Counted from the first letter of the stretch, positions 7,622 through 63,492 are shown. The stretch: 64,000 nucleotides of DNA from Candidatus Omnitrophota bacterium (GCA_028716565.1 JAQUPL010000001.1:211545-275544); one strand, 5' to 3'. Numbers and translations are program-made. Notes: generated from the sequence alone by a model not told the origin.

Positions 7622-7624
7622 CCC

Positions 7625-9808: not shown

Positions 9809-9809
9809 C

Positions 9810-10760
<951 letters not shown>

Positions 10761-10766
10761 ATGCCC

Positions 10767-11309: not shown

Positions 11310-11335
11310 TCCCCTCCTCCTTTATTTTTTGAGGT

Positions 11336-14389: not shown

Positions 14390-14409
14390 AAGGGGTATTT
14401 AAGGTAGGT

Positions 14410-14682
14410 TTATTTAACCTTTTGTTTCATTATGAGCCCCGGCTTGAATACCGCAACCTTCTTTGGCGGAACAGGTACGGTGACGCCGGTCCGCGGATTC
14501 CTGCCTGTCCTCCCGCGGCGGGATTTGACCTTGAATATCCCGAAATTCCTCAGTTCAACGGTTTCGGCGTTCGCCAGGGCACCTACAATGATGTCGAGGG
14601 TGCGCTGGACCACAAGCTTTACGTCCACTTGTTTAAGGCCGGATTCGTTGGCTATTTGCAGCACTATCTCCTTCTTTGTCAT
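14410..14682 (-). CDS. hup: HU/IHF family nucleoid-associated DNA-binding protein
   Basis: 90 aa; MTKKEIV...RNFGIFKVKSRRGRTGRNPRTGVTVPVPPKKVAVFKPG matches the HU arm motif. Confidence 0.9.
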   Translation of the reverse strand: MTKKEIVLQIANESGLKQVDVKLVVQRTLDIIVGALANAETVELRNFGIFKVKSRRGRTGRNPRTGVTVPVPPKKVAVFKPGLIMKQKVK

Positions 14683-14724
14683 GCTTTCCTCCTGACGTAA
14701 ATTATTATATCCATTATAGTTAGT

Positions 14725-14753
14725 AAATTATCATTTTTGGCTGGGTTTGTCAA
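14725..14753 (-). promoter_or_regulatory. putative sigma-70 promoter for the HU gene (-35 TTGACA, 17-nt spacer, -10 TAATTT)
   Basis: Minus-strand TTGACA at 14753..14748 overlaps the dnaE stop. A 17-nt spacer leads to TAATTT at 14730..14725. A strong SD (CAGGAGGAAAGC) precedes the HU ATG. Confidence 0.4.
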
Positions 14754-18196: not shown

Positions 18197-18224
18197 TTAT
18201 GACTCCAATAAATGAATTATTGTA

Positions 18225-18319
18225 TGAGATTTAAGTCTCGCTCGGCTTTATTTATTACTCGCAATGGCTATTATCCTGCTGCGTCATAAACCGGCTCTGC
18301 GCGAGACGTTAAATTTCAT
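18225..18319. repeat. 95-bp palindromic intergenic repeat (MITE/ERIC-like), copy 1 of 3
   Basis: Shares the termini ..ATTTAAGTCTCGC... and ...GGCTCTGCGCGAGAC(A/G)TTAAATTTCA with the copies at 21122 and 23720. The ends are inverted repeats (about 18 bp stem with one bulge) and the central ~25 bp diverges. Sits between the guaA stop and the dnaE start. Confidence 0.85.
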
Positions 18320-18335
18320 ATGATCAAATCTTTTC

Positions 18336-19880
18336 CTACTCCCATTCTATAGTAGAAGGCGGCTTGGAGCTTATGTCGTAGACGACGCGGTTGACGCCCC
18401 TCACCTCGTTTATTATCCTGTTGGAGATCTTCTCTAGCAGGTCATAAGGCAGCCGCGCCCAATCGGCGGTCATCCCGTCGGCACTCGTCACGGCCCGGAG
18501 GGCGATGACGTTCTCGTAAGTCCTCTCATCCCCCATTACTCCCACCGTCTTTATCGGGAGCAGCACGGCGAACGATTGCCATACCTCCCTGTAAAATCCC
18601 GCCTTCTTGATCTCTTCTATCACCGCGACGTCGGCCTCGCGCAAGATATTGAGGCGTTCCTTCGTGACGTCGCCTATGATCCTTATGGCCAGTCCGGGCC
18701 CGGGGAACGGCTGGCGCAAGACAATCTCGTCCGAAAGCCCCATCGCCTTCCCGACCTGCCTCACCTCGTCTTTGAATAATTCGCGCAGCGGTTCGACAAG
18801 CTTTAGTTTCATCTTCAGCGGCAGACCGCCGACATTGTGGTGCGACTTGATGGTCGCCGAAGGGCCGCCGAACGCGGACTTTGATTCGATGACGTCGGGA
18901 TACAATGTCCCCTGCGCAAGGAATCCTATCTTCCCGAGCTTCTTCGCCTCTTCTTCGAATACGCGGATGAACTCATGGCCTATTATCTTGCGTTTCTTTT
19001 CAGGGTCGACGACCCCTTTCAGTTTATTGAGGAACCGCGACTCGGCGTTCACGTATTTCAGGTTGATATGGAAATGCTTTTTGAAAGTCTTGACTACGCG
19101 TTCGGCCTCGCCCTTCCTCAGGACGCCGTTATTGATGAATATGCAAAATAGCCGCTTGCCTATCGCCTTATTGATGAGGACGGCGGCGACGGACGAATCT
19201 ACTCCGCCGGAGAGGCCGCAGACGACCTTTTCTTTTCCCGCCACATCCCTTATATTTTTGACGGTATCGTCTATGAAGGACTGCATCGTCCAATTCCCCC
19301 GGCACCTGCAGATATTACACAGAAAATTCGCGATTATCCTGCTGCCCTTGGGGGTGTGGGCGACCTCGGGATGGAACTGGACGCCGTAGAGGCGCCTTGC
19401 CTTGTCAGCTATAGAGGCAAATTCGGTATTATAGGTATGGCCGATCTTGTTGAAGCCGGGGGGCAAACGCGAGACATAATCGCCATGGCTCATCCAGCTG
19501 ATTATTTTATTATCGAGCCCGGCGCAGAGGCCCTCGAAATCATCTATAAGGAATTCGGCGTGCCCGTATTCGCGTTTCCCGGCCTTGGTAACTTTGCCGC
19601 CGAGCATATGAGCCATAGCCTGCATGCCGTAGCAGATGCCCAGGACAGGGATCCCCAGTTCGAATATCTCTTTCTTAGGTTTGGGCGCGCGGGCGCCGTA
19701 GATCGAGGCGGGGCCTCCGGAAAGGATAAGCCCTTTCGGGTTCAGTTTCCGGATCTCTTCGGCCGTGATGTCATGCGGGACTATCATGGAGAACACTTTA
19801 TTCTCCCTGACACGGCGGGCTATCAACTGGTTGTATTGCGAGCCGAAGTCTAAAACAAGGATAACCTCATGCTGCGGCAT
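18336..19880 (-). CDS. guaA: GMP synthase (glutamine-hydrolysing)
   Basis: 514 aa; class I amidotransferase N-terminus (GICYGMQ), ATP-PPase motif SGGVDSSV, and a C-terminal GMP synthase dimerisation domain. Confidence 0.95.
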
Positions 19881-27478: not shown

Positions 27479-30232
27479 TCAGAACTTTACTTCAAGTTCC
27501 TTTGTGTCCGCGGGAACGCTGATCCTGTTCTTGCCGAGCGTCAGGATATACCCACCCGGAGGCGGCGTCGCGCAATCGGTAGACAGCTTGACAAAGCCCT
27601 TGGCTCGCGAGCTTTCTACTTTGAAAGATACCTTGCCAAAATACGTCGGGGCATCCTTTATCTCTATGACCTTGCCGTCATCGAGCCACGAGTCCGGGAT
27701 GCAGGACAAAAGCACCAGCTTATCGCCGTCCTCGCGAAAAAGCATGTCGCGCAGCAGTAAAATATAATGCGCGGCCGACCAGCCGTGCGGGACGTCGCCT
27801 ACTATCCCTTCGGTGATCTCCCTCAATCCTTTAGAGTTGACCTTGGTCGGCATCGCCTCCATCCATCCGCCGGGGCAGGATTGGTGCTCTATACCCCACT
27901 CGATGCTCTTAAGCGCGACGTCTTCCATTCCAATATATATAAGGGGATGCGCGAGCTTGAAATTATATCCCCAGAAGAGCTGCTCGTATTCAACGAACCA
28001 CCCGCCGTCATAGTCCGAGAACTTCCCGGCGTTCTTCCAATATTGCTCATATGAAGTCTTGAACAGCTCCGCAGGTACCGGGATGCCCATATTCTCTCCC
28101 GGGAATAATGCCGGCCTGTGCGCCCACGCCATCTGCGTATCGCCCAGTATGCGGTGATCCATGTCCTTTATGCGCATCTCTTTGGGCCAGTAATCGGCGA
28201 ACCCGGGCATGAACGACAGCCCGTTCTTCTTCATCGATTTTTCGATGCTCGCGATAGTGGCGGAATGGAGGCTTCCGTATTCGGCTTTCATCCATTTGGC
28301 GTCATCCGGTTTTCCGAGTATCTGCGCCGACTCGTAAGCCGCCTTAAGGCCTATCATCGCCCACCAGTCATCTACGTAAAGGTAGGCAGGTATCTTGAAA
28401 TTGTCCTGGCTCACCCCCTTAGGAAGGAGCCCGTAAGCCACGTCTTCCTTCGGCAGTGACATCTGCGGGGCCCGGACCTTCCTTATGAGTTCGCACGCCG
28501 ACTTCATCCTGGGATATGCGGCCTCCAGGTATTTAACGTCCTTTGTCAGCCGGTAATGCTCGTAAGGCGCGAAGATGCTGCCGCCGAGCTCGTCTACGTA
28601 GCCGCCGCCTTCCTTGTAATTGAAGTGTTCGGTTGAGGCGCGCGCCTCTTCGGTAAGCCCTGCCTTGTCGAGCGCGTTGTCCATATCTATCGCGTCATGC
28701 ATGAAGAACGATGTATATTCATACGGGCCCGGGAAAAGTTTATGTTCCTCGTCCATTATCAGGATGTAATAGAGAGATGAATAAAAACAATCACTGTAGC
28801 GCTTATCCGGGATATTCATTACGAGCGGGATGCGGCCTTTCCAGTATTTGAACGTCAGCGCGAGCGCTTCGTCGAAACCTTTATCCTTGATGTCGTTAAA
28901 TGACAACTCCGCTCCTGTGCCTGATGGTACGATAAAATCAAGGGATTCTGTAGTACCGGCAGGTATCTTTTTCCTGTAAGATAGCGAATCCCTCAGGTCT
29001 TTGCCTAGAGGGCCTTCCGCCCTTTCGTCAAGGAAGAGCCGCGGCGCGCCGTTTATCTTTACGGTATGGTCGGCGTCGTATTCGATCGTCTTCATATCCG
29101 TAACTTTCCATTTAGGGTAAAGCGGGTTCGGCCGGATGACTGCCATTATCAACACTTCTTTATCCCGGGCGCTTGTATTTTTGACAGATTCCCTGGCAAA
29201 GGTCAGGACTTTGCCTGCTTTTTCATCGAACCAGGAGAATATCTTCGTCTCGCCTTCGATACCGTTGCCTTTCCACGATACCACCGTCACAGGATACCCG
29301 CCGTCGACCAATTTCCAATCGGTATGGAGCGTTTCCGGGGTATAGAGCCGGTCGTCATCGTTTACCCAGAAACTGACCCTGAACGGGTAAGGATAGACGG
29401 CAAAAGAACCGTCCTTTCCGATGAAAGTCTTGAATTTGGAACCCTCCCACCCGGCGAGGCCGCGGGCCTTGTTCAGGCCTTTGTGTTTGGCGATATCGTC
29501 CCAGTCCTTGAATTCGATCTTCTTCATCACGCTTTCCTTCCCTTTGTTGTCTTCACAGTTGATCTTTATGTGGCGTTTCCCGAATATGTTAGCATATATC
29601 CTGTCCTGTCCGCCAGTGCAAACCTCTTTATTATAGACGGTCTTCCGGCGGTTATCCTCTTCGATCTCCACGCGGTACGATCTTGGGAAGTCCTCCCCCC
29701 ATGTTATAAATAAAGCGCCGATATTCCTGTCCTTCTTGAGCTCTATCGAGATCGTAGTCCTGCCGTTATCGCTCGAGGTCTTTATCGGTATCTCGTCATC
29801 GAGCCCTTTGATCCTGATCTCCCAGATCGAATATCCCCACGCCGTGCCGCGCTCCTTTAAGTCCAGTTTTATGAATCGCGCCTTCTTCCTCCCGAAATAT
29901 ACGTCGTCGACTACCCCTTCGCCTTCGGACGTGGAATAGGCGTTCTCCCAATTTTTCCCGTCCTCTGATATGAGTACGTCGTAGGATCTCGCGTAAGCGG
30001 CCTCCCAGTTTATGATCAGGCCGACCAGGTCCTCGGTCCTCCCGAGGTCTATCTGGAGCCATTGCCTGTCGGAGAACCCGCTCGACCATCTCGACTGCAG
30101 GTTATTGTCGAACGCGTAAGAGGGCCCGGTGGAATCGTTTTCGGATGATGACGCATTCACCGTTGCGGCGTTTGAAAGATGGGCTATCGCCAAAAATATG
30201 CAAAGGATCATTGCGGTCTTTATCTTTTTCAT
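27479..30232 (-). CDS. secreted protein with two N-terminal F5/8 type C (discoidin) domains and a large C-terminal domain, possibly a carbohydrate-active enzyme
   Basis: 917 aa with a signal peptide ([22 protein letters not shown]). Two discoidin-like modules (..QWLQIDLG...[25 protein letters not shown].. and ..[24 protein letters not shown]..) precede ~600 aa of unassigned, possibly (alpha/alpha)6-like, sequence. Confidence 0.55.
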
Positions 30233-51263: not shown

Positions 51264-51578
51264 CTACTTTGATTTGAGGTTTTTGTCGAGGATCTCTATC
51301 CGCGAATCGGCCTTTTTCTTGTGCTGCAGCGCGAGGCGTTCTTCTATAACAAGGTCAAGCTGTTCTTTCAGCGTATTAGGAGTGATCTTTAATGAAGGAT
51401 TTTCACTGATGCGCAGCGCGAGAGCCATCTTCAGGTCTTTATTGGTAATAGGCTCGCCGTTGACCGTCGCTATGACTTTTTCGACCGGCTGGACGGCAGC
51501 CGGTTTTTCAGCCGGCCTGCCGCAGCCTAACAATAAGAAAGTAGCTAAAAGTAAGAGTATTTTTTTCATTAAATTCAT
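51264..51578 (-). CDS. small lipoprotein with a SurA N-terminal-like chaperone domain
   Basis: 104 aa; lipobox LLGC. VIATVNGEPITNKDLKMALALRI...LKEQLDLVIEERLALQ resembles the SurA_N / PpiD N-terminal helical chaperone module (compare the SurA motif pattern AAVVNNGVVL..L...IMERLIMDQIILQ). Start overlaps the stop of the giant gene by 4 bp. Confidence 0.6.
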   Translation of the reverse strand: MNLMKKILLLLATFLLLGCGRPAEKPAAVQPVEKVIATVNGEPITNKDLKMALALRISENPSLKITPNTLKEQLDLVIEERLALQHKKKADSRIEILDKNLKSK

Positions 51579-54500
51579 GGTGTTAAAACTCCGGCTACCA
51601 CTTCATCAAGTATATACGAGGTTCCATCGTAAGTTATTGAACCGGCGGCTTGACCTGTGGCCGTTGAGCCATTTATCTGACCAAGGATATCTGCAGTATA
51701 TGTGGTTTCAGTTATGTTGGTATATGTATGGTTGAGATAATCGGAAAGGTTAGAAATAGTATCTATCTCTCCTATGACAGGAAGTGCCGACCGAATTAGC
51801 TGACCATAACCGACAAATATTCCAGTATCATATACGCTTAAATCAATACTGCCAGCAATCAAGTTGGCATTTCCGGATACGTCGGTAAGTAATGCGGTAT
51901 AGGTTTCGGTTATCGGGACCTGGACCATATCGGCTAACGCGACTTGGTCAAAACCTAGCGCGCTTGTCGCGATCTCGGCCAAGTCTACCCAATCGCCCTC
52001 CACTTTGGCGTTCCAGGTCGTATCTACATTAGTAATGTCGGAGATGGTGCCGTCTACCATGCCTACCCATAACGTATCTTCTCCCTCCGTGTGCATCCCG
52101 AAAGAAACGCCGTGGAAACCATTTGAGCTCGCGGTCCCAAGTAAATATCCATCGACCACGCCGTCATCATAAGACTTGATGCCTAATGCCAGCCGCCAGT
52201 TTGAATTCTCCTCTATATTTCCTGTGCCTGCCAGCATACCACTGTATGTACCCGTATCAGGCATGCCTTCGGGGATCCCCAGGTTTGTAACCGCTTCTCC
52301 TCCGAACAGGCCGGCCATAAGGACGCCGTTAATATTGCCCCATCCGCTCCCTGCGACATCGATCTCGTTTGTTATTATATGTTCCTCTTTCAGATCGATT
52401 ATCTGTTCATATCTTCCGATGGCGAGCGCCTCCCATCCATCGGTGTCATTATATACGCCGGCGATATTTCCGGATATCTCGCCTAACCTGGTGCCGTAGA
52501 GAGTGACGCCGTTCATCGTCGCCAGGAATCCGTTGTCCGTCCATTCCGACCCTGATATCACAGCGACCCAGGGGCTGCGCCCGTAGATCCTGTCGCCTTC
52601 ACCGGCCAAGACCGAATTCCACGCGCCGGTTGGCAGAGACGCGTAGGCACCGCCCGCCGACGCGCGCCACAGACCCCAGTTTTGGTCACGAAGCTGAATA
52701 TGTTCGCCGCTGACAAAGCCGCTGACGTTGCCGTTTATAACGGCGTCTAAATCGCCGTATTCAAATACTACGTCTATATCATCATTCATCACGTCCATTA
52801 AAAAGAGCTCAGGCGATATATCAGTCTGCTGGCCGGGATAAGCGGTCATATTTCCGTAAGCGTCAAACATGCTTATCGACGGATAGAAAGCGCCGTTGAC
52901 GTAGGCGGGATTACCTGTCCCGTCGGAAGATAACACATACCCGGCGAGATAATCGTCATCGCCGTCGGCGTCAAGATCGCCGGCATTACGGACATAAATG
53001 GCTGCCAGCATGCCTTTAAGCGAGTTATTTAATGTTGTGCCTCCCACAGAACCGTATAGCACAGAGTTCCCGTTGGTGACCGCAACAAAATCCGAACCCC
53101 AGAGATTGTAGTAACCCGCGCCGTCTTCATTGATATCCGGATTATCGTAATTGCCGAGTATCGTGAACTCCGGCGAATTATCCCAGAGCACCCCAGTACT
53201 GCCTAGGACGCCGTTGACATATCCGTAATCGAGCATATCGTAATCGCCGAAATATCCGTCGATCATCATTCCGCCGGTCACAAGCGGTTTCTCCACCCAC
53301 CCGCCTATAGCCGAAAGGGCGAACGTCGAATACCCCTCGCGGTCGTTATATATGCCGCGGGCGTCTCCGAATATCGTCGACATCACGTTTCTTTCAAGGT
53401 CTATGGCGGTGCCGAATACGTCGCCCACTATCTTGTTACCGGAAACGCTGCTGTTCGAGATAGTGACGAGCTCATAATAGTTGTAGTAAGGTTCGTCACC
53501 GTCGTAATAGCCAAGCACAACCGCGCCTTCTTTTGCGTTCCCTTCATACCACGGTTCTCCCCATTCTCCGGCGAGGGTGATGTTGAACAGGCCCCACGGG
53601 TTATTCGCGATATAGTATGAACTTTCGCTCGCTGAGCCATAAACTAAATTAATGCCGTCGAACGATCCTCCGACCATATATTCCGCGTGATAGCCGTCTT
53701 CGGCAAATCTTTCGAAGAGGTCTTCAGGAGAGACTACGGTGCCGCCCATCGCCTGCCGGTATAGCGCGCCTTCAGCCTGCCACATCTCTATTTCATCGTT
53801 GTACCTTCCGTTGATATCGCCGTGAAGCAGGCCGACAGCCCCGTTCGCCGCATAAATGGCCCACATGCTGCCGTCGGACATTGATCCGTCCTTCCAGATG
53901 CCGGCGGAGAAGCCTTTAAAAGCGCCGCCGTCGAGAGTAGTCGAATTATCCAGTTCGGCATTATAGCTTTCTATGGGAGTGTTCCACAACAACGGGTTTT
54001 CTTCCGCGTAATTGTAGAATTTACCCATCGCCAATACCGGGAATGAAGCCTCATTCCACCACTGCTCGACTGTCGAGCCGATCAACCCCCATTCCTCGCC
54101 CGCTTTATCTATATAGCCGTAATTGTCATAGTATAAGCTGCGGACCTCATAACCCCACAGGCCGCTTAGGGTAAGCCGTCCGCCGTTCCAGACACCGGCA
54201 CCGACTCCCAGCCAGTCGCCCTCGCCTTCCCCTTCATATATTCCGAGTATCTTGCCGTCAATATTGCCCATCTTTGTATAGGTGATGAATTTCCCGTGCA
54301 GTTCGGCATCCACATCTTCTATGTAGTCGGATACCTCATCCCACGTCCCGGTCAAATCGGCCATCCAGTATCCGTAATCGTCGTTGAGGTAACCTTCACC
54401 TTCTCCGTCTCCATATTTAAAATAATAGGCGCCGAACGGATCATCCCCGCCCATAACGCCGGACCACGTAGTTTCGGATCCGGGGTCATCGTTTTCAAAC

Positions 54501-57376
54501 CAGCCGGTGATCGTCTGCCCGTAGACGCCCCAGTTCTGCGCTATTCCGCGTTCGTGATCGACTATCGATAATGTCCGGAAGTCATCTTGACCGTATATGT
54601 ATCCGCCCGTCGTTAAGGTGCCGGAAAGATAACCGTACCCTTCGGTATTCCATATGGGGAGCTCTTCCGCGGGGATGCCCAATTCCCCGGCCGAGACCAT
54701 TTGGGTCTTTGTCATCTCTCCCTGCAGGAGGTACATCCCGATATCCGTCGAATACGCGCCCTTCAGGTCGCCTGACATCACTCCGGCATTGCCGGCCGGG
54801 TCTATATACAACAGCCTCGCAAGTCCGAGTAATTTTGCATCCTGTCCGTCGCCGGCTGTGAAGCCGAAAAACGCGCCGCCGTCATATGTAGTATATGGTC
54901 TGGTTTCATCGCGCGGATTATCGCTGCCCATATTCTCAAACCAGATAAACGGTTCGTAAAATTCTCCCTCATAGCCTTCGCCGTACTCAGGGTTGACGTC
55001 CGGTTCCACGTACCCTATGGAAGTGACATTGAAGGATCCCGCGCCCCAGAGGTCTCCGGTAGTGCCGAATAATCCGCGGAAATCGCCGTCATGGAAGTAA
55101 TCGCCGTAATTATAAGTATATAAACATATGTCAAAGTCTCCGCTGGAGGTCAGGGGTTCTTCTCTGAAGCCGCCCAGCCCTATCCCTTCGAAACCTTCTC
55201 CCTCAATGTTGCCCAGTATCGTACCGTAGTATGTACCTAACTTATCGTAATCAAGGTAGGTTCTGAGTATGTCTATTCTTACGGCGCCCGAGCCATCGTC
55301 AACGCCCTCAAGCGAGACGAAAAATCTTCCGCCGGCATCACCGTAGTACCCGCCTGCCGCTCCGAGCCAATTATTCAGGTTATGCGAGTTAGAATATCCG
55401 CCGTTATATACGTCTCTCCATATACCCCAGTTCTCTCCGGCGATCGTTTTTATGTCCTCGTCGAAGACGACGTCGAACTGACCGCTGCCATTACCGAAAT
55501 AGGCGTTCAACCAGCCGTTGCCGGTACCGTCCTCCCACCCGTATTCCTTGCCGGGCTCAAGCTGGGCCATGGGTATTGTATAGAGGTCCCCGGTGCCGCT
55601 CAAAGTGCCTGCCCCGGCTAGCGAGACGCTATTCGTACCGGAAAAATATCCGAAAAGGTTACCCGCTAAACCGGAAGGATCTATATATATAGAAGATACA
55701 ACGCCTTCCCAACTGTGCCAGCTTCCTCCGGCCCAGCCCGTAAAAGCTCCGCCGTCTGTGCTGGTGCCGTACACTTCTCCGTGCCAGAGGCTGTAGCCGG
55801 GATTTTCATATGAACCGGCAGCGTTAGTGGAGAAGATCCCTGACCATGGGACGGCAAGGGCTGTCGTGTTTGAAAGGTCTATCTCGATACTATTAGGACC
55901 TTCTAGCCCCTCATCGGGCCCGAAAGCGCCTTCGATCCTTCCTGAAAGATAAACGGGTAAAGTCGCAGAGCCGCCGCCTTCGCCGCCGGTCGTACCGCCG
56001 CCCACTCCCGTATTGTCGGTAAATATCTTGTCGCTGAAAGGATTCTGGTTCCAGTTGGTGTCGGGGTTATCACCTGTACCTCCTCCAGTACCTTCAGAAT
56101 ATCCCTCAGGGGCGGAATAACCTTCAGCCCCTCCTTCGACATCCCATCCCTGGTTCCATTGTGAACGTTGCTCATCGGTGACATGGATCGGGTTCGATAC
56201 ATTACCGTTCCCGTCGGCGCCGGATGAGGTTCCAGCTGCCACATTTTGGATGATTCCGGATATCATGCTTTTCAAGACACCGTTACCGTCTTCGAAATAT
56301 GCGCTTGTAAGATTAGGCAGGATGTTAAGGAAAAGGATCGTGCCGCGGACGGAAGCGACGGCTGTCGGGGTCTTGACTTCAAATTTGGAATTGCCTTTAA
56401 GTTTCTCTACTTTGGCGCGGAGTTTGCCCTTCTTCGACTCAAAGAGGCTCTCATGCTCTCCGCTCCCGGTCTCCTTGAGGCGTGTTATAGTGAAATTCGA
56501 GTCCTGTTGTAAAGTGATGACATCACCGTTCTCGACCCTGAATTCCACTTTTCCGTTCTTGTTCGTCTCTATTGTATCGCCGCCTCTGAGGGTCTCGTTC
56601 ACTTTAGCGTCGTGCCATACGGCCGAGCCGCCGTTCTTGACTTTAACGCTTCCGGAGAGTTTGACGATGACCGCCTTCATCTCGCCGGGTTCGCTGTAAC
56701 CCTCGGCCGCCGCGGATTCCCCGGCAGGGGCTTTCGCTATCAGAGTATCTTTTTCGTGCGCGGTTCTCTCCATGGCAAGGATCGTCCTGGGAGAGGTAGG
56801 CCCGCTGTCCGCGAGTATTACCGATGACTCCCCGCTCTTTATCTCGACCTTCTTTTCGGGAGCGGCGGAGCTTGAGAATGACAAGCTGCCGTTCAGGACC
56901 GTCGCCGAGGTCGCCGATTTCTGGTAGGCCACTACGACATCGGTCCCTTTTATGCTTCCGGAGGCGTTAGGGGTATTGATGAGGAAATTATCTTTGCCCG
57001 GAGCTTTGGAGACAACCGCTCTTATCTTCCCGCGTTCTATGTTCAAAACGGCCGCTATACGTTTTCCGTCGAGGCCTACCCTGTAATCCTTGATCTCAAG
57101 CCTGGTTTTTTCCGAGAGGGTGACGACAGACTTGTCAGAGAACGTTAACTCCGCCTTAGAGATGCTCTTCGTTCTCAGGATGTCTCCCGCAGATACATCC
57201 TCTCCGCCTTTTACCGGCACCGCTTCGGTCCTACCCGGGCTAAGCAGGTCTACATTACCCTCGGCGGCGGATACCCTGCCTATCACTTCGGCGCTCGCCG
57301 TGACGGCGAAAGCAAGGGACGCCGCGGTAAGTATAAATACTCCCGCCGTTAATAGTTTTGCGGTCCGGCTTTTCAT
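51575..57376 (-). CDS. giant secreted protein (1933 aa): signal peptide, two tandem FecR domains, ~1500 aa repetitive Gly/Tyr/Asp/Asn/Trp-rich region
   Basis: SPI signal peptide (..LAFAVTASA) with no lipobox. FecR domain 1 (GDILRTKSISKAELTFSDKSVVTLSEKTRLEI...FLINTPNASGSIKGTDVVV) and domain 2 (GDTIETNKNGKVEFRVENGDVITLQQDSNFTI...FEVKTPTAVASVRGTILFL). The remainder has almost no Lys or Arg and shows a recurring motif h-x-G-[DN]-h-x-G-x-Y-[NS]-[DT] (LHGDINGRYNDE, MSGDLKGAYSTD, FGDARGIYNDRE, SGNIAGVYNDTD). Confidence 0.85.
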   Translation of the reverse strand: MKSRTAKLLTAGVFILTAASLAFAVTASAEVIGRVSAAEGNVDLLSPGRTEAVPVKGGEDVSAGDILRTKSISKAELTFSDKSVVTLSEKTRLEIKDYRVGLDGKRIAAVLNIERGKIRAVVSKAPGKDNFLINTPNASGSIKGTDVVVAYQKSATSATVLNGSLSFSSSAAPEKKVEIKSGESSVILADSGPTSPRTILAMERTAHEKDTLIAKAPAGESAAAEGYSEPGEMKAVIVKLSGSVKVKNGGSAVWHDAKVNETLRGGDTIETNKNGKVEFRVENGDVITLQQDSNFTITRLKETGSGEHESLFESKKGKLRAKVEKLKGNSKFEVKTPTAVASVRGTILFLNILPNLTSAYFEDGNGVLKSMISGIIQNVAAGTSSGADGNGNVSNPIHVTDEQRSQWNQGWDVEGGAEGYSAPEGYSEGTGGGTGDNPDTNWNQNPFSDKIFTDNTGVGGGTTGGEGGGSATLPVYLSGRIEGAFGPDEGLEGPNSIEIDLSNTTALAVPWSGIFSTNAAGSYENPGYSLWHGEVYGTSTDGGAFTGWAGGSWHSWEGVVSSIYIDPSGLAGNLFGYFSGTNSVSLAGAGTLSGTGDLYTIPMAQLEPGKEYGWEDGTGNGWLNAYFGNGSGQFDVVFDEDIKTIAGENWGIWRDVYNGGYSNSHNLNNWLGAAGGYYGDAGGRFFVSLEGVDDGSGAVRIDILRTYLDYDKLGTYYGTILGNIEGEGFEGIGLGGFREEPLTSSGDFDICLYTYNYGDYFHDGDFRGLFGTTGDLWGAGSFNVTSIGYVEPDVNPEYGEGYEGEFYEPFIWFENMGSDNPRDETRPYTTYDGGAFFGFTAGDGQDAKLLGLARLLYIDPAGNAGVMSGDLKGAYSTDIGMYLLQGEMTKTQMVSAGELGIPAEELPIWNTEGYGYLSGTLTTGGYIYGQDDFRTLSIVDHERGIAQNWGVYGQTITGWFENDDPGSETTWSGVMGGDDPFGAYYFKYGDGEGEGYLNDDYGYWMADLTGTWDEVSDYIEDVDAELHGKFITYTKMGNIDGKILGIYEGEGEGDWLGVGAGVWNGGRLTLSGLWGYEVRSLYYDNYGYIDKAGEEWGLIGSTVEQWWNEASFPVLAMGKFYNYAEENPLLWNTPIESYNAELDNSTTLDGGAFKGFSAGIWKDGSMSDGSMWAIYAANGAVGLLHGDINGRYNDEIEMWQAEGALYRQAMGGTVVSPEDLFERFAEDGYHAEYMVGGSFDGINLVYGSASESSYYIANNPWGLFNITLAGEWGEPWYEGNAKEGAVVLGYYDGDEPYYNYYELVTISNSSVSGNKIVGDVFGTAIDLERNVMSTIFGDARGIYNDREGYSTFALSAIGGWVEKPLVTGGMMIDGYFGDYDMLDYGYVNGVLGSTGVLWDNSPEFTILGNYDNPDINEDGAGYYNLWGSDFVAVTNGNSVLYGSVGGTTLNNSLKGMLAAIYVRNAGDLDADGDDDYLAGYVLSSDGTGNPAYVNGAFYPSISMFDAYGNMTAYPGQQTDISPELFLMDVMNDDIDVVFEYGDLDAVINGNVSGFVSGEHIQLRDQNWGLWRASAGGAYASLPTGAWNSVLAGEGDRIYGRSPWVAVISGSEWTDNGFLATMNGVTLYGTRLGEISGNIAGVYNDTDGWEALAIGRYEQIIDLKEEHIITNEIDVAGSGWGNINGVLMAGLFGGEAVTNLGIPEGMPDTGTYSGMLAGTGNIEENSNWRLALGIKSYDDGVVDGYLLGTASSNGFHGVSFGMHTEGEDTLWVGMVDGTISDITNVDTTWNAKVEGDWVDLAEIATSALGFDQVALADMVQVPITETYTALLTDVSGNANLIAGSIDLSVYDTGIFVGYGQLIRSALPVIGEIDTISNLSDYLNHTYTNITETTYTADILGQINGSTATGQAAGSITYDGTSYILDEVVAGVLTP

Positions 57377-57394
57377 CTTACATATCTCCTCATT

Positions 57395-58897
57395 TTAGAA
57401 TTTGTATTGTATCCCTAAACCGTAAATGCTTCTGTCGTAATCGTAGACCGCTATATTCGAATGGTCCTTCACGTAGGTGTACCTGAACTGCAGCTCCGCT
57501 TCCTTCCAGAAGTTATACGCGAGCATGGAAGAGACCGTATAGACCTGGTCATCCCGCTTTTTCCCGAATATTGTGTTCGTATCGGCGAAGTCCTGGAGGA
57601 AAGCGTCGCCTGCGATGCTTAGCTTAAATTTTTTAAAGAAAGGATAGAGGATCGTCGCGGTGAACCTGTTGCCGAGATAGTTCCAGTTCACGCCTTGTGT
57701 ATATTCCCTATTCAGCCCGTAATGGAGCCCGAAGAAACCTTTATTCTCCGCGAAGAAGAAAAAGTAACCCAGGCCACCGCCGAAATCATTCGAGTTCCTG
57801 TTCTCGTCGGGTATGAAGGGGTCGCGGGCAAAAGCCTTCTTCTGATACTTAAAATTAGCCTGAAGCATGTGCCTTCCGCCGATTATGTAATTGACAACGG
57901 GGCTGGCGCTGACCGTCGTCATATATTTGGTCCTTCCTACATCGGTATAGTTATATCCCGCGGCGATGCCCAAAGTCCCATTCTTGAAATAATAATTCGG
58001 CGTTACCACGACGGTCTGGCTCAGGACATCGTAAATGCCGAGGTCATTCTGGTGCGCGAAGTACAGGGAATACTGGCCGTCGAGTCCCAGCTTATCATTT
58101 AACTTCAGCCTGCCCTGGCCCATGAAGTTCACGACTTCCCTCCAGTCAGCCTCATCGCTGATGCCGGTCGCGACAGTATCGTCGCCGGGCTTAAGCAGGA
58201 CGTTCGTGTCGTATTCCCCTCCGATGCTGACAGTCGCCCTTAGGGGCCTCTCAGCCTCCTCTTTTCTCTTAAGGGCCTCCATATATTCGCTGGAAAATGA
58301 CGCGAGGTCGGAGTTGGGGTCGAGGATTATTATCTCGTGAAATACCTTTTTAGCCTCGGCGAACCTCTTCTCCTTTAGGTGCGCGATGCCTATCTGGTAA
58401 TCGGCGGCCCGGGCGAGCGTCGGGTCGATAGCTTTTGCGTTCTCGAAGGCTGTTATCGAGTCCATATTTTCGCCGGCCTTCAAGAGCACAAGGCCTTTCA
58501 GGAAAGCTGTCTGCGAGGGCTTGATATTTTCCTTTTCCGCCGTCGCTATATAAGACTTCGCCTCGTTTGTCTCTCCCAGTTGATAGAGCACTTCAACAAG
58601 CTCGACAAGCGCTTCCTTGATCTTCGGCGTAAGCGTAACCGCGTCGGTTAACTGTTCTTTCGCGAGCTTATAGTCCTGCAGCTGCTTATAAGTTATACCG
58701 AGGTAATAGGCGGCCAGGCACGAATTCGGGTCCTCCTGCCTTGCCTTCTTAAGGAGAACGACCGCTTCATCGAAGTTCTCTCTTTTATACTGACTCATGC
58801 CTTGCTCAAGAGACGTATCAGCGGTTGCGGTATTGAAGATAAAAAAAGAAGATATAAAGACGGAAAATATCATTACCAGGAGGGCTTTTTGCGGCAT
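57395..58897 (-). CDS. outer-membrane protein: N-terminal periplasmic TPR domain + C-terminal beta-barrel (Slam / type 11 secretion-like architecture)
   Basis: 500 aa with a signal peptide. It has 4-5 TPR-like repeats (residues ~30-200), then ~14 amphipathic beta-strands ending in a C-terminal aromatic (..GLGIQYKF). Size and layout match Slam (DUF560) translocons. It is 18 bp upstream of the giant gene. Confidence 0.6.
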   Translation of the reverse strand: MPQKALLVMIFSVFISSFFIFNTATADTSLEQGMSQYKRENFDEAVVLLKKARQEDPNSCLAAYYLGITYKQLQDYKLAKEQLTDAVTLTPKIKEALVELVEVLYQLGETNEAKSYIATAEKENIKPSQTAFLKGLVLLKAGENMDSITAFENAKAIDPTLARAADYQIGIAHLKEKRFAEAKKVFHEIIILDPNSDLASFSSEYMEALKRKEEAERPLRATVSIGGEYDTNVLLKPGDDTVATGISDEADWREVVNFMGQGRLKLNDKLGLDGQYSLYFAHQNDLGIYDVLSQTVVVTPNYYFKNGTLGIAAGYNYTDVGRTKYMTTVSASPVVNYIIGGRHMLQANFKYQKKAFARDPFIPDENRNSNDFGGGLGYFFFFAENKGFFGLHYGLNREYTQGVNWNYLGNRFTATILYPFFKKFKLSIAGDAFLQDFADTNTIFGKKRDDQVYTVSSMLAYNFWKEAELQFRYTYVKDHSNIAVYDYDRSIYGLGIQYKF

Positions 58898-59082: not shown

Positions 59083-59598
59083 ATGAAAAAACTATCCATT
59101 ATTTTGCTGGTGGTAGCTTTTCTCTCCGTTGCTCACTCTGCATTTCCCGATACTTTCGATACTTTACAGGGTATTGTTTTTTATCCATTTTCCACCGCAG
59201 AACATTATACAGAGATCCATAATTTCGATCTTGGGCAAACCCCCTATCTATATTTAGAGCTTCCGTCGGGAAATTACGGTTTTTATACGTCCTCTATTGA
59301 AACTAACTGGTATCACGGTGACTCAGATGAAGGCGGCTATACTGCATTAGGTATAGAACGACTTGTCTACAATAATAATCCGACCCCGACCTTATCCCGG
59401 GACTGGAGCAACCCGTCTAATATCGGCACCTGGTATATCTCTGCGAATTGCACTATTGTTGGTACTTCGTATTTAACCGGACAAGCCAACACCTGGTTCA
59501 CAATCAGCGACCCGAATGCTGTCCCGGAACCCGTCAGCACTATCCTGTTTTTGGCAGGCGGGGCGACACTCGCGGTAAGACGCCTGCGTAAAAAGTAA
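59083..59598 (+). CDS. PEP-CTERM sorting-signal protein (putative exosortase substrate), secreted
   Basis: 171 aa; N-terminal signal peptide and a C-terminal VPEPVSTILFLAGGATLAVRRLRKK (PEP motif, TM helix, basic tail). The gene is visibly lower-GC than its surroundings and is the only plus-strand gene in the window. Confidence 0.8.
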   Translation: MKKLSIILLVVAFLSVAHSAFPDTFDTLQGIVFYPFSTAEHYTEIHNFDLGQTPYLYLELPSGNYGFYTSSIETNWYHGDSDEGGYTALGIERLVYNNNPTPTLSRDWSNPSNIGTWYISANCTIVGTSYLTGQANTWFTISDPNAVPEPVSTILFLAGGATLAVRRLRKK

Positions 59599-59605
59599 TT
59601 CCCTT

Positions 59606-61516
59606 CTATTCTATTTTCAATATAATCACCGTCATGTCGTCGTGTTGGGGCGTGCCTTGGCTGAATTTCTCGACTTCCCCTACCAGCTTATCGGCCAGGC
59701 CCTGGGCCGAAAGCCGCCTGTTCAATAATGCCGTATCGAGTATTTGTTTCTCGCCGAATTCTCTCTTGTTCTTGTCCCTCGCCTCTGATATGCCGTCCGT
59801 ATACATCACGAATACGTCTCCCGGTGAAACATCGAACTCATCGGCCGTAAACTCCGAGCCGGGGATTATACCTATGGGGCTTCCGACCGATTGCGTCAGC
59901 GCCACCACGTCCCCGGAATCTTTCACCCAGACGAGCGGGTTATGGCCGCCGTTCGAATATTTTATCTTCCTCTCCTTGGGTTTGTAGATGAGGTACTGGA
60001 GGGTGACGAACATCCCGGAGACCCCTTCTTCAACGAGCCTGTCATTTATCGCGGTAAGGGCTTCATCCGGTTCGTTGAAGTCATGGGAAAGACCGCGGAA
60101 ATCCGCCATCGCCTTCGCCATGAACAGGGCTGCCGGGACGCCTTTGCCTGAGACATCTCCGATGACGATCCCCAGCCTGTCTTCCTTCAATTTGACGACA
60201 TCGTAAAACAATTTTATGAAATCGTAAAAATCCCCTCCGACATGTTTTGCCGGAACGAACTTGACCCCTAATTCGACGCCTTTAGTCCCCGGAAGGTTTT
60301 GGGGCAATAGCGACTGCTGTATCCGGCTTGCTATCTGGAGCTCTTTTTCTATAAGGCCCTTCTCGAACCTCGTTATAATGAACTGGTTAAGTGTCACGGC
60401 AGGATACGCGACGCACAGCAATATCAGTATGCTTACATAATCCAACCATATATTAAAAAAAGAAAATGAAATATACGATATAGCCGATATTCCTGCTGCC
60501 AGGACCGCGAAAAAAGCCAGACCCTCGAACGGGGTCCTTTTCGGGAGAGTAAGACCGATGGCTGAGCCGATAATAAGGAGTATAAGTAATATTCCCGGCC
60601 TGTATACCCGATCGATGAAATCCTTTTTAAGGATCGTGTTAATCGCGCTTGCCCTTATGCCTACGCCCGGGTATAAGCTGGACATCGGAGTAGACCAAAA
60701 GTCCTCGCTTCCGGTCGCGGTCAACCCTATGATGACGATCTTGTCCTTCAGCATCTTAAGGTCTATGGCAGGTTTTTCGCCGTCCTGCGCCTGTACGCCG
60801 GCCAATGCCACGGCCGCGTAAGATGCCCTTTTAAATTTGGCGTATTCTCCGGGATAATTTATCCACATCATCCTGTTCGCGTCAGTCCTGACATTGAGTT
60901 TCTCGGGTGTTGTGCCTAAAAAATGCGCGGCCACGAGCGCGTCCAAGGATAAGTATTTTTTTCCTTCATGGGTGAGCTCTACCGGAACCTTCCTGACTTT
61001 CCCGTCCGGCTCTACTAGGATGTTCACGAAACCTACGCCTTTGGCGTTCCGCTGCAGTTCCGGCAACGGCAGGGTAATATCCCTGGGCTTGATGATGTTC
61101 TTCCTCATGTCGTCCTGGCCGAGGTCGAAAAAAGCCGAATAGAATATGTTGCCGGTTATCTTGGTCTGTTTAGATAGTTTTATGTCTTCCTCTGGCTTAT
61201 CCTCCTCCGGTTCGCTGAAGATGATATCGAAGACTATGGTCTTGGGGCCGTAATCATCTATGATATCCAGCAATTCTGCGTGATATCCCCTGTCCCACGG
61301 CCACCTGCCGAAGGCCTTAAGGGCCGCGTCGTCTATCTCTATGATGACTATATCGGGACTTGCCGGCCGCGGGCCGCGCATCTTGAAAAGTAAGTCAAGC
61401 CCCTGGTATTCAGCGAGCTCAAGGATGCCTGTCAGGTAGGCAAAGCCTATGACCGCCGCGCAAATTAGCCCTATTAAAAGCCCGCTTTTCTTTTTCATTC
61501 TATTATTATCTCGCAT
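59606..61516 (-). CDS. CHASE2 sensor domain-containing PP2C/SpoIIE-family serine phosphatase
   Basis: 636 aa; TM helix, periplasmic CHASE2-like region (..IVIIEIDDAALKAFGRWPWDRGYHAELL..), three TM helices, then a PP2C domain (GDVSGKGVPAALFMA...MYTDGISEARD). Confidence 0.75.
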   Translation of the reverse strand: MRDNNRMKKKSGLLIGLICAAVIGFAYLTGILELAEYQGLDLLFKMRGPRPASPDIVIIEIDDAALKAFGRWPWDRGYHAELLDIIDDYGPKTIVFDIIFSEPEEDKPEEDIKLSKQTKITGNIFYSAFFDLGQDDMRKNIIKPRDITLPLPELQRNAKGVGFVNILVEPDGKVRKVPVELTHEGKKYLSLDALVAAHFLGTTPEKLNVRTDANRMMWINYPGEYAKFKRASYAAVALAGVQAQDGEKPAIDLKMLKDKIVIIGLTATGSEDFWSTPMSSLYPGVGIRASAINTILKKDFIDRVYRPGILLILLIIGSAIGLTLPKRTPFEGLAFFAVLAAGISAISYISFSFFNIWLDYVSILILLCVAYPAVTLNQFIITRFEKGLIEKELQIASRIQQSLLPQNLPGTKGVELGVKFVPAKHVGGDFYDFIKLFYDVVKLKEDRLGIVIGDVSGKGVPAALFMAKAMADFRGLSHDFNEPDEALTAINDRLVEEGVSGMFVTLQYLIYKPKERKIKYSNGGHNPLVWVKDSGDVVALTQSVGSPIGIIPGSEFTADEFDVSPGDVFVMYTDGISEARDKNKREFGEKQILDTALLNRRLSAQGLADKLVGEVEKFSQGTPQHDDMTVIILKIE

Positions 61517-63492
61517 TCCGGCAAGGCTGACAAGAATTTCCTGCCGTATGGTTTTTGCAATATCCTGCTGTCCAGGATAACGACGATGCCGGTGTCGTAT
61601 TTCGTGCGCACCAGCCTGCCGAAGCCCTGCTTTAATTTCAATATCGCCTGCGGGAGGCTGTAATCCTGGAACGGGTCCCCGCCTTTATCCTTTATCTTTT
61701 CCATCCTCGCTTCTGCGATCGGGTGGTCAGGCACGGCAAAGGGCAGCCTCGTGATAATAACGTTGCCCAACGCCTCGCCCGGCACGTCGACGCCTGTCCA
61801 GAACGAATCTACGCCGAATATCACCGAGCCGACGTCGCGTTTGAAAGCCTCGAGCATCTTGGTGCGCGGGAGCCCGGCGCCCTGTTTTAATACGGGGATG
61901 CCGAGGTCATGGAGGAAAGGCGCGGTCTCCTCATATACGTCATCCATGAACCTGTAACTCGTGAACAGGACGAACGCCCTCCCCTCGGTCCGTTCGAGGT
62001 AATCTTTCAGTTTATGGACCACTTCCGCCTTGTATTTATCGTAGTCGTTAGGGTCCGGCATCTTTTTCGGGATATGGATCTTCACATTATTTGCGTAATC
62101 GAACGGTGAGCCCAGTAATTTCTCGTCGCACCTCTTTAAGCCGAGGCGGCTTTTTATGTATTCGAAATTCTTCTCGGTCGATAACGTGGCGCTTGTAAGC
62201 ACGACCGTGTCTATCCTCGAAAAGAGCGTCCCGTTGAGCGCCGGGGCGATGTTGATGGGCGCGCACTCGAGCGATATCCTGCGCCTGCTTGCGGCCCGCA
62301 GGCTGCCCGATGCCTCCGCCCAATAGACGTAATCCGGCGCGCCCATCGACAGGGACATTTCCAATGCCTGGATTAGCGCGTCCGTCCTGTTCATGTAATA
62401 CTTGAAATCCATCTCTTCTTCTTTGGAGCGTGCCCGCTCGAACTTGTCCTCGAGCATGCGGGAGAGAGCCTTGAGCGGTTTTGAAAGGCAGTCATCCGTG
62501 AAATCCGGCTCACTGACCCTGCGTATGGTATCCCTGTCGAGCCAATCCGCGACGCCGTCAAAGAAAGTGTCCGAGGCCTTCTTCAGGTCGGAAACAAAGT
62601 CTTTCAGCCCGTCATCGCTGACAGAAGCAAGGAACCCTTTTTTCTTCGACGGGTTATACAGGGAATCGAGGAGGTATTTTACCCTGAAGTTAGATATCTC
62701 ATGACCGAGATGTTCGGTCGCGACATCTTCAATCGTATGCGCTTCGTCGAAGACGACGCACGAGTAATTCGGAAGGAGCGAGTACTCGGATTGGCGCAAG
62801 GCAAGGTCGGAGAAGAAGAGATGATGGTTCACTATCAAAATATCCGCTTCCTGCATATTGCTGCGCGCCTTCATAAGGAAACAATCATTCCTGTAAGGGC
62901 ACTTCTTCCCTAGGCAGGTGTCCGGCTCGCAGCATACCCGCTCCCATACCTTCGGGCTGGGCTCCTCGCTGAAATCCGAACGCGAGCCGTCTGTCGTGAC
63001 CTTGGACCAGGCGAGGATATTCCGCAGGTCGCCGACCTCCTCCTTTGATTCGAAGAGGTCCGTCTTTGAAGAGAAGACCCTGTTGAGCCTCCTGAGGCAG
63101 AGATAATTAGAACGACCCTTTACCAGGCAGTAAGTGAAGTCGAACGGCATGACGGACTTGATGAACGGGATATCTTTTTTTATGAGCTGTTCCTGGAGGC
63201 TGATGGTGTTTGTGGAGATGACCGCTTTTTTACCGGATGAGACCGCGGAATCTATCAGGGGCACGAGATAAGCGAAGGATTTACCGACGCCTGTGCCGGC
63301 CTCGGTTATAAGGTGCCTCTTCTTCCTGATGGCGTCCTCGACGGCCTTTGCCATCTGACCCTGCTGCGGGCGGAATTCGTAATCTTTAAAGGCGTTCGCG
63401 AGCAGCCCGCCCTTGCCGAAAAATCCCTCCGCGTCGATATTAGCGGCCTGATCATTCGTGCCTCTGAGCAACGGGCTGTTAGGTAAGATCAT
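61495..63492 (-). CDS. dinG: ATP-dependent DNA helicase, DinG/XPD (Rad3) family with Fe-S cluster domain
   Basis: 665 aa; Walker A AGTGVGKSFAYLVP, four Cys in the FeS insert (CCEPDTCLGKKCPYRNDC), a DEAH-like VVFDEAHTIED motif, and a C-terminal helicase domain. Confidence 0.85.
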   Translation of the reverse strand: MILPNSPLLRGTNDQAANIDAEGFFGKGGLLANAFKDYEFRPQQGQMAKAVEDAIRKKRHLITEAGTGVGKSFAYLVPLIDSAVSSGKKAVISTNTISLQEQLIKKDIPFIKSVMPFDFTYCLVKGRSNYLCLRRLNRVFSSKTDLFESKEEVGDLRNILAWSKVTTDGSRSDFSEEPSPKVWERVCCEPDTCLGKKCPYRNDCFLMKARSNMQEADILIVNHHLFFSDLALRQSEYSLLPNYSCVVFDEAHTIEDVATEHLGHEISNFRVKYLLDSLYNPSKKKGFLASVSDDGLKDFVSDLKKASDTFFDGVADWLDRDTIRRVSEPDFTDDCLSKPLKALSRMLEDKFERARSKEEEMDFKYYMNRTDALIQALEMSLSMGAPDYVYWAEASGSLRAASRRRISLECAPINIAPALNGTLFSRIDTVVLTSATLSTEKNFEYIKSRLGLKRCDEKLLGSPFDYANNVKIHIPKKMPDPNDYDKYKAEVVHKLKDYLERTEGRAFVLFTSYRFMDDVYEETAPFLHDLGIPVLKQGAGLPRTKMLEAFKRDVGSVIFGVDSFWTGVDVPGEALGNVIITRLPFAVPDHPIAEARMEKIKDKGGDPFQDYSLPQAILKLKQGFGRLVRTKYDTGIVVILDSRILQKPYGRKFLSALPECEIIIE

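Follow-up and report, generated by a model that had tools for sequence, protein, structure and literature searches.

Tandem all-beta modules in a FecR-headed giant protein of Omnitrophota, and the pairing of its gene with a TPR and outer-membrane barrel gene

Introduction

A stretch of 64,000 nucleotides (nt) from a Candidatus Omnitrophota bacterium (GCA_028716565.1, JAQUPL010000001.1:211545-275544), designated here as the window, includes a repetitive coding region at positions 51575-56200. In a preliminary description, this region was considered to be a tandem array of large divergent beta-rich modules, likely a fibre or adhesin and possibly Ca-binding. The questions raised by this locus are whether the modules are true repeats, what fold they adopt, and with which cellular system the protein is associated. 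The region is revealed to be a chain of all-beta domains derived from one ancestral unit, and the gene encoding it is paired with an upstream gene for a tetratricopeptide repeat (TPR) protein carrying an outer-membrane (OM) beta-barrel. Both the domain family and the gene pairing are well supported and new to the databases searched; the mechanism proposed for them is inferred.

The encoding gene

The flagged nucleotides correspond to amino acids (aa) 393-1933 of a single minus-strand open reading frame (ORF) at 51575..57376. Its product of 1933 aa, designated here as the giant, is 100% identical to a public protein from a metagenome-assembled genome (MAG), "FecR family protein [Candidatus Omnitrophica bacterium]". 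The features of the gene are as follows, with the evidence in brackets.

51575..57376, minus strand: whole gene, encoding a putatively secreted FecR-headed repeat protein of 1933 aa (ORF; identity to the NCBI MAG protein)
57290..57376, minus strand: putative Sec-type signal peptide, aa 1-29 (read from the translation)
56885..57271, minus strand: FecR domain 1, aa ~36-164 (Pfam PF04773)
56282..56668, minus strand: FecR domain 2, aa ~237-365 (Pfam PF04773, NCBIfam, self-similarity)
55937..56221, minus strand: low-complexity linker rich in G/S/T/E/N, aa ~386-480 (translation)
55535..55936, minus strand: leading half-module A0, aa ~481-614, with the A-type motif YIDPSGLAGNLFGYFSG (jackhmmer and hidden Markov model matches to the A half; z = 5.0)
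54635..55528, minus strand: module M1 = B1+A1, aa 617-914 (profile match of 215 bits; shuffle z)
53657..54631, minus strand: module M2 = B2+A2, aa 916-1240, modelled by AlphaFold2 (profile match)
52745..53656, minus strand: module M3 = B3+A3, aa 1241-1544 (profile match of 100 bits; A-type motif degenerate)
51977..52738, minus strand: module M4 = B4 + degenerate A4', aa 1547-1800 (profile match of 52 bits; z = 6.7 against M3)
51578..51976, minus strand: C-terminal cap domain, aa ~1801-1933 (terminal unit profile; AlphaFold2)

The putative signal peptide, as read from the translation, is composed of MKSRTAK, a hydrophobic core and ASA|E, and it contains no lipobox Cys. The two FecR domains (PF04773, 90.1 bits against a cut-off of 24) are found only at the N-terminus, outside the flagged region, and are similar to each other with a z-score of 13.2. 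All z-scores described here were obtained by Smith-Waterman alignment against 300 composition-preserving shuffles. FecR domain 2 also shows a sub-threshold match to the NCBIfam model NF033682, a LapA retention module (35.1 bits against a cut-off of 50). From aa ~386 to the C-terminus, no match to Pfam or NCBIfam was found, and the two FecR domains are the only families recognized in the protein.

The composition changes sharply along the protein. The first 400 aa contain 9.0% K, 4.0% R, 1.0% Y and 0.2% W, while aa 400-1933 contain 1.4% K, 2.0% R, 16.6% G, 6.7% Y, 3.1% W, 8.0% D and 6.1% N. Summed over this repeat part, K+R account for 3.4%, Y+W for 9.8% and D+N for 14.1%, and Cys is essentially absent. 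The isoelectric point (pI) is ~4.05 for the repeat part (209 D+E against 49 K+R) and 9.2 for the FecR part. The depletion of Lys/Arg and the enrichment of G, Y, D, N and W downstream of the FecR domains, which had been noticed in the preliminary description, are thus borne out by the counts.

Two alternating repeat types

The modules show statistically supported similarity to one another. The z-scores are 15.6 for M1-M2, 8.0 for M1-M3, 6.7 for M3-M4, 5.1 for M1-M4, 4.5 for M2-M3, and 5.0 for A0-M1, while none of the modules M1-M4 rose above background against the FecR domains in the same comparison. Fragment searches with phmmer connected aa ~800-915 with aa ~1122-1230 at up to 33-34 bits. A plain self-BLASTP of the whole protein gave no off-diagonal match, and the repeats came to light only with fragment phmmer, jackhmmer and shuffle statistics. 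The strict pattern G[DN]x(2,3)GxY[NS][DT] was observed 4 times, against an expectation of 0.014 from 5000 residue shuffles. Profile searches found the modules recurring every ~300 aa in 170 proteins. The proposed tandem array of large divergent modules therefore stands, and the internal periodicity on which it depended is supported by jackhmmer, by profiles and by the shuffles (z = 4.5-15.6).

A local jackhmmer analysis with 39 homologues clarified that two segment types, A and B, alternate. The A half is ~130 aa long and carries the motifs TTYDGGAFxG and ALYIDPxGNAGxLxGxLxGxYY. The B half is ~160-190 aa long and carries the motifs WGIW...GGxY and LTYTKLGTIxGxxLGxY. The B profile and the A profile are themselves homologous (hhalign probability 93%, E-value 2.9e-7, 86 columns); thus, the ancestral unit is ~150 aa, and the module of ~300 aa is a B+A super-repeat. 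The region is accordingly a chain of ~10 all-beta domains from one ancestral ~150-aa unit, which has diverged into the B and A types. It is laid out as the linker, A0, four B+A modules and the C-terminal cap, which is specific to the family. The linker region shows no match to the module profile, except for a marginal one at aa 481-538. A4' and the cap together form a terminal unit of 234 aa, which is the last part of the sequence in 150 of 164 proteins of the family.

All six motif strings quoted in the preliminary description are present, at aa 572, 866, 1043, 1183, 1335 and 1634. The recurrence was correctly recognized there; the two classes were not told apart, and two copies were missed. 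The A-type hairpin is found at aa 572, 866 and 1183, and the B-type at aa 1043, 1335 and 1634 as well as at aa ~716. The latter is one of the missed copies, and the other is the degenerate A copy of M3 at aa ~1460-1495. The mixed spacing of 150 and 300 aa between motifs is explained by their belonging to two alternating classes.

Structure prediction

The AlphaFold2 model of M2, built from an alignment of 44 modules, has a predicted local distance difference test score (pLDDT) of 92 and a predicted template modelling score (pTM) of 0.90. It consists of 18 beta-strands and one short C-terminal helix. The strands are mostly 8-19 residues long and are joined by tight turns into long antiparallel hairpins, in agreement with the beta-rich nature suggested earlier from the sequence. 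Independently of this model, mean-field direct coupling analysis (DCA) was performed with 391 modules (an effective number of 383 sequences for 303 columns); the result is noisy, and its interpretation was limited to roughly the 20-60 strongest pairs. The strongest couplings sit on the hairpins S6-S7, S7-S8, S8-S9, S15-S16 and S16-S17. Non-local pairs connect S3 with S9 in the B half, and S10 with S15 and S13 with S18 in the A half, pointing to a pair of sheets, closed or folded over, in each module. The AlphaFold2 model of the C-terminal unit (pLDDT 82, pTM 0.57) contains two beta domains and a short helical linker. Its last beta domain, aa 1824-1932, has 8-9 strands with a pLDDT of ~95. The all-beta character is thus common to both models.

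In PDB and BFVD, no Foldseek match of these models combined an E-value below 0.01 with a usable template modelling (TM) score. The best match of the M2 module had an E-value of 0.014 in PDB, with TM-scores of ≤0.18, and an E-value of 3.6e-3 with a TM-score of 0.16 in BFVD. The C-terminal unit gave one PDB match with an E-value of 7.6e-4, yet with a TM-score of 0.18, and nothing both significant and superposable. PDB profile searches with the alignments of the module, the A half, the C-terminal unit and the partner barrel described below gave nothing meaningful. Individual Pfam scans of 44 modules and 30 C-terminal units gave isolated noise matches only. The modules represent a beta-domain family that is undescribed in Pfam and NCBIfam and has no relative in PDB. 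The earlier impression that they belong to no named family holds for Pfam, NCBIfam and the PDB profile searches, with RTX, VCBS, cadherin and immunoglobulin (Ig)-like families all unmatched.

Related proteins

The module profile matched 572 representative proteins (E-values ≤1e-3) among 1.84 billion, of which 348 had E-values below 1e-30. Multiple modules were found in 148 of the 150 best matches listed, and up to 24 matched stretches were found in a protein of 6991 aa. The number of modules across the family ranges from 1 to ~24, and ORFs with both FecR and modules are ~680 aa or longer. Some relatives bear Ig-like or PKD domains beside, or in place of, FecR, and separate Big_13 or PKD domains were seen in a few distant ones. 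The acidic, K/R-poor and Cys-free composition is a family-wide trait; the means over 169 proteins are 11.4% D+E, 3.9% K+R, 15.5% G and 13.3% aromatics, with a pI of 4.3.

The species-representative genomes encoding these proteins are all MAGs or single-cell genomes. The carriers in Omnitrophota include Ca. Makaraimicrobium. Many carriers belong to Desulfobacterota (Syntrophales, Syntrophorhabdaceae, Smithella, Syntrophus, Desulfatiglans and Desulfobacterales), and others to Nitrospirota and Planctomycetia.

The paired gene upstream

A gene on the same strand ends just ahead of the giant.

57395..58897, minus strand: partner gene, encoding a signal peptide, TPR (aa ~30-200) and an OM beta-barrel of ~285 aa (Pfam TPR families, BBP2_2)

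Its stop codon is 18 nt ahead of the ATG of the giant. The product is 500 aa long, and its C-terminus, ...YGLGIQYKF, is a canonical beta-signal of OM proteins (OMPs). The pairing was analyzed in 62 related loci, of which 59 were found with the A-half motif and 3 by other means; 46 of them include the FecR start. In 43 of these 46 loci, spanning Omnitrophota, Desulfobacterota, Nitrospirota and Planctomycetia, the gene immediately upstream is a TPR and barrel gene in the same orientation. Every partner barrel with an intact C-terminus in the related loci ends with the OMP beta-signal. In public annotation, the homologues of the partner are called merely "tetratricopeptide repeat protein".

The sequence of the partner family overlaps with the Slam/SlipAM family. 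Over its whole length, the SlipAM profile (PF04575, cut-off 22) scored 31.5, 48.2 and 35.0 bits with the syntenic orthologues at three related loci (L021, L033 and L055). Two homologues (P0205 and P0239), which are 55% and 47% identical to the partner in the window, matched SlipAM at 34.1 and 25.5 bits. TPR_Slam matched the partner homologues below threshold only. When the barrel domain of the window was scanned alone, BBP2_2 scored 24.1 bits against a cut-off of 23.7, and DUF2860 remained below threshold.

Among proteins of this kind, barrels passing SlipAM were observed in Omnitrophota, Desulfobacterota and Nitrospirota. A Desulfobacterales MAG (L019) carries tandem FecR-module giants at 6980-12763 and 13658-19693, and no TPR-barrel gene was detected upstream of them; L024 is the other named exception to the pairing.

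Genes flanking the pair

Two further genes near the pair are relevant to its possible function.

51264..51578, minus strand: lipoprotein of 104 aa with the lipobox LLLGC and a weak SurA N-terminal-like match (ORF; profile match)
59606..61516, minus strand: CHASE2 sensor fused to a SpoIIE/PP2C phosphatase (Pfam CHASE2 184 bits, SpoIIE 174 bits)

The ATG of the lipoprotein gene overlaps the stop codon of the giant (ATGA). This overlap downstream and the 18-nt spacing upstream point to an operon-like organization of the partner, the giant and the lipoprotein. Homologues of the lipoprotein gene were found in 16 related loci, mostly directly downstream of the giant. The lipoprotein may be a dedicated periplasmic chaperone.

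A CHASE2 gene is located beside the pair in 15 related loci. The output domain of the sensor is PP2C in Omnitrophota, whereas it is a class III (adenylate/guanylate) cyclase in the three sensors scanned from Desulfobacterota/Nitrospirota (L011, L033 and L055). Five more loci (L013, L022, L034, L050 and L054) include CHASE2 ORFs of similar size without a SpoIIE match. The output thus differs between phyla, and the part that remains associated is the sensor domain. In two Omnitrophota relatives (L001 and L002/L003), an RsbW-like kinase (HATPase_c_2), a STAS protein and MlaE/MlaF/MlaD are encoded in the cluster, which suggests a partner-switching cascade downstream of CHASE2-PP2C in these two. 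STAS, RsbW-like and Mla genes were not found within the window.

An ORF of 171 aa lies at 59083-59598 on the plus strand. It encodes a signal peptide and a C-terminal sorting signal of the PEP-CTERM type (VPEP, a hydrophobic stretch and RRLRKK), and had no Pfam match. In L004, the closest relative, there is no space for an insert of this kind. A DinG-like helicase gene (DEAD_2/Helicase_C_2) at 61495-63492 on the minus strand shares 22 nt with the beginning of the CHASE2-PP2C gene.

Possible function and alternative explanations

The giant is tentatively read as an exported surface stalk or adhesin of variable length, handled by a Slam/type 11-like barrel, a possibility that rests on the sequences and gene order described above. 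The FecR-module protein would be carried into the periplasm by Sec, and the translationally coupled SurA_N-like lipoprotein might keep it export-competent as a periplasmic holdase. The upstream protein, with its TPR and a 14-strand-type barrel of the Slam/SlipAM family, would recognize the conserved C-terminal beta unit of the giant as the targeting end. The acidic, Cys-free chain of modules would then be displayed outside the cell, with variable length. Like a retention plug, the basic FecR pair could stay behind in or at the envelope, and from there could link the condition of the chain on the surface to the CHASE2 domain that the neighbouring sensor has in the periplasm. This last part, the FecR plug and its reporting to CHASE2, is more speculative and rather doubtful; the only hint for a plug is the sub-threshold match of FecR domain 2 to the LapA retention module. 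It is also conceivable, but unlikely to hold as a whole, that Slam/type 11-like secretion or anchoring operates outside Proteobacteria on FecR-headed cargo of variable length, made of the new beta-domain and physically wired to CHASE2 sensors. Such a system could serve as an envelope-spanning "antenna" by which host-dependent Omnitrophota and syntrophic Desulfobacterota sense contact with partner cells or surfaces. The label of fibre or adhesin given in the preliminary description is plausible, as it fits the variable number of modules (1 to ~24) and the link to an OM translocator-like gene. The weak Foldseek matches of the C-terminal model include five structures of cargo of the type 11 secretion system (T11SS), namely TbpB C-lobe, HphA, TbpB, fHbp and HpuA; they may be taken only as a hint.

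Several observations count against export through a Slam-type barrel and against the coupling to CHASE2. The barrel in the window gave no Pfam SlipAM match at E ≤0.1, and since it falls below threshold, the SlipAM membership of the partner in the window rests on its homologues. The Foldseek match of the C-terminal unit to the TbpB C-lobe (E-value 7e-3, TM-score 0.16) is not significant, nor is the Pfam TbpB_B_D match, seen in 1 of 44 modules with an E-value of 0.23. A comparison of the C-terminal unit with fHbp by hhalign gave a probability of 0.2%, which is weak evidence either way. The last residues of the giant in the window, ...VVAGVLTP, differ from the commoner endings in the family. CHASE2 was found in only 15 of the 46 loci within the DNA covered, and in the window the plus-strand PEP-CTERM gene sits divergently between the CHASE2-PP2C and TPR-barrel genes.

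The alternative that survives best, although it is considered improbable, is that the giant is not exported, but is a periplasmic scaffold in a trans-envelope relay similar to FecA/FecR. The chain of modules would then be a spacer or a ligand-binding array, the TPR-barrel protein would be the OM receptor, and the FecR domains would bind both its periplasmic part and the CHASE2 domain. Classical FecR indeed binds the periplasmic signalling domain of an OM barrel (PMC5498481), the CHASE2/FecR/TPR triad recurs with short FecR proteins, and the barrel in the window itself fails SlipAM. However, chain length varies ~20-fold, and by a rough estimate the longer chains exceed the fixed width of the periplasm. 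Extreme acidity and the lack of Cys are typical of proteins crossing the outer membrane, and both are found throughout the family. Moreover, among close homologues the partner barrels score above the threshold of the Slam-family model, and the conserved unit at the extreme C-terminus resembles a targeting signal. These points argue for the exported stalk rather than the scaffold.

It is very unlikely that each module or half-module is an OM beta-barrel embedded in the membrane, so that the protein would be a "poly-porin". The composition (rich in G, Y, W, D and N, and Cys-free) resembles that of OM barrels, and the best Foldseek matches of the module, none of them significant, are intimin, porins, FadL, OmpG and Ail. 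However, the TM-scores to these barrels (0.10-0.28, E-values ≥0.014) are far below same-fold values, and neither the protein nor the 44 modules matched the OMP families of Pfam. OMPs are not typically depleted of K/R, and the giant lacks the C-terminal aromatic beta-signal that is present in its neighbour.

The RTX-like, Ca-binding beta-solenoid or beta-roll adhesin suggested in the preliminary description, with the G-D-x-x-G-x-Y-N-D motif as the metal site, is largely refuted. It was based on the acidic composition rich in Gly/Asp/Asn and on the recurring Gly/Asp motif. However, the 18-strand model is made of long antiparallel hairpins and not of short rungs, and the hairpin registers and two sheet closures seen in coevolution disagree with a solenoid. 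The D/N positions of the motif vary across the family. The only acidic column conserved in ≥90% of the 44 modules is the D of TTYDGGAF; therefore, the modules lack the conserved Asp/Asn cluster that a Ca site would require, and Ca binding by regularly placed Asp/Asn finds no support. No RTX, VCBS, cadherin or Ig-like Pfam family matched the protein or the 44 modules. A Sec signal peptide is present in place of the C-terminal signal of the type I secretion system (T1SS), and no T1SS genes were found among the genes scanned in the window. Finally, the idea that there is no true repeat and that the motif recurs through biased composition, to which the empty self-BLASTP gave some appearance of support, is refuted by z-scores of up to 15.6 against composition-preserving shuffles, by the 4 motifs against 0.014 expected, and by the modules spaced at ~300 aa in 170 proteins.

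Relation to described systems

In function, the giant comes nearest to the cargo of T11SS (Slam/DUF560/SlipAM) with duplicated handle-barrel pairs and to giant repeat adhesins. T11SS cargo includes TbpB, LbpB, fHbp, HpuA, hemophilins, and the multi-TbpBBD surface proteins of Sphingomonas and Psychrobacter. T11SS cargo is Sec-dependent and has a C-terminal beta-barrel targeting domain, some with duplicated handle-barrel pairs; barrel domains of known type are missing from the vicinity of distant T11SS clusters, where targeting may depend on novel domains (10.1101/2024.09.26.615229). A gene for a TPR and SlipAM-type OMP adjoins the substrate gene, much as the giant of the window follows a TPR-barrel gene whose homologues pass SlipAM. 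The cargo and, by prediction, the giant are both all-beta with a small terminal beta domain, share a Sec signal peptide (that of the giant being read from the translation), and have paired beta sub-domains that can be duplicated in tandem. In contrast, published accounts place the Slam/T11SS family in Proteobacteria, whereas the family of the giant is found in other phyla, reaching 6991 aa and ~24 modules. Neither TbpBBD nor Lipoprotein C matches the domains of the giant significantly, whether by sequence or by fold, and the giant has a FecR-pair head and no lipid anchor. The barrel in the window is below the SlipAM threshold. Because of this, and because the barrel type that defines the cargo is not demonstrated, the giant is not assigned to T11SS.

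Triads of CHASE2, FecR and TPR genes have been reported from adenylate cyclase clusters of Campylobacterota (PMC9239204), and an operon of LysM-FecR and a CHASE2 kinase from Burkholderia (PMC5192318), both with no mechanism given. In the window as in those triads, three domain types lie side by side, with the output of CHASE2 varying and the partners constant; the genes here are at 59606-61516, 57395-58897 and 51575-57376, with the PEP-CTERM gene inserted between the first two. The FecR proteins of the known triads are short, while the one here is extended by 1500 aa of new beta modules. The triad papers report no barrel, whereas the TPR protein here carries a barrel which, through its homologues, is related to the Slam family.

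In NCBIfam, the FecR part matches best to FecR lipoproteins/adhesins of Leptospira (LipL45, Lsa33 and Lsa19; E-values 6e-26 and 2e-24), which are annotated as surface proteins. These matches reach 91 bits against a cut-off of 420 and cover the FecR region only, and the Leptospira proteins are without repeat modules. Giant repeat adhesins of the LapA type, in which a periplasmic retention module is located at the N-terminus, and "periscope" stalks of variable length are likewise acidic, Cys-free chains of tandem beta domains with variable copy number. Unlike them, the giant has a Sec signal and no C-terminal T1SS signal, RTX or Big/Ig domains, and its retention module match scores 35, below the cut-off of 50. 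The giant proteins described from Omnitrophota (10.1101/2023.11.21.568195 and 10.64898/2026.06.07.730766) share with it the phylum, length, repetitiveness and a presumed association with the surface. FecR occurs 0 times in these two reports. The protein analyzed here is, in contrast, only 1933 aa long, and members of its family also occur in Desulfobacterota and other phyla. VCBS, cadherin-like and Ig-like repeats are beta-sandwich units of ~90-110 aa, whereas the unit of the giant is ~150 aa with no Pfam match. RTX proteins are built from GGxGxD nonapeptides forming short beta-roll rungs, whereas the modules of the giant consist of long hairpins, also with no Pfam match.

The analysis defines an uncharacterized domain family of 572 representative clusters with a confidently predicted fold and a testable genomic context. 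If the partner is truly a Slam-type translocator, type 11 secretion would reach at least 4 more phyla, with cargo ten times larger than known. In that case, the CHASE2-FecR-TPR triad, noted in several genomic surveys but unexplained, would gain the hypothesis that the TPR protein is an OM translocator or anchor for the FecR protein. To our knowledge, CHASE2 has no known ligand, and a protein partner for it would thus be a useful lead.

Remaining genes of the window

The surrounding 64 kb is ordinary chromosome, with dnaE, valS, uvrB, lepA, ppdK, trpBA and similar genes. In a protein of 917 aa encoded at 27479-30232 on the minus strand, an F5/8 type C (discoidin) domain is located at the N-terminus, and the remainder is without annotation. 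A seven-transmembrane receptor with an HD hydrolase domain is encoded at 7625-9808, also on the minus strand. Almost all genes of ≥250 aa share the minus strand. Of the 32 bins of 2 kb, 30 have a negative GC skew and 2 a skew near zero; both observations fit a single replichore arm of the chromosome.

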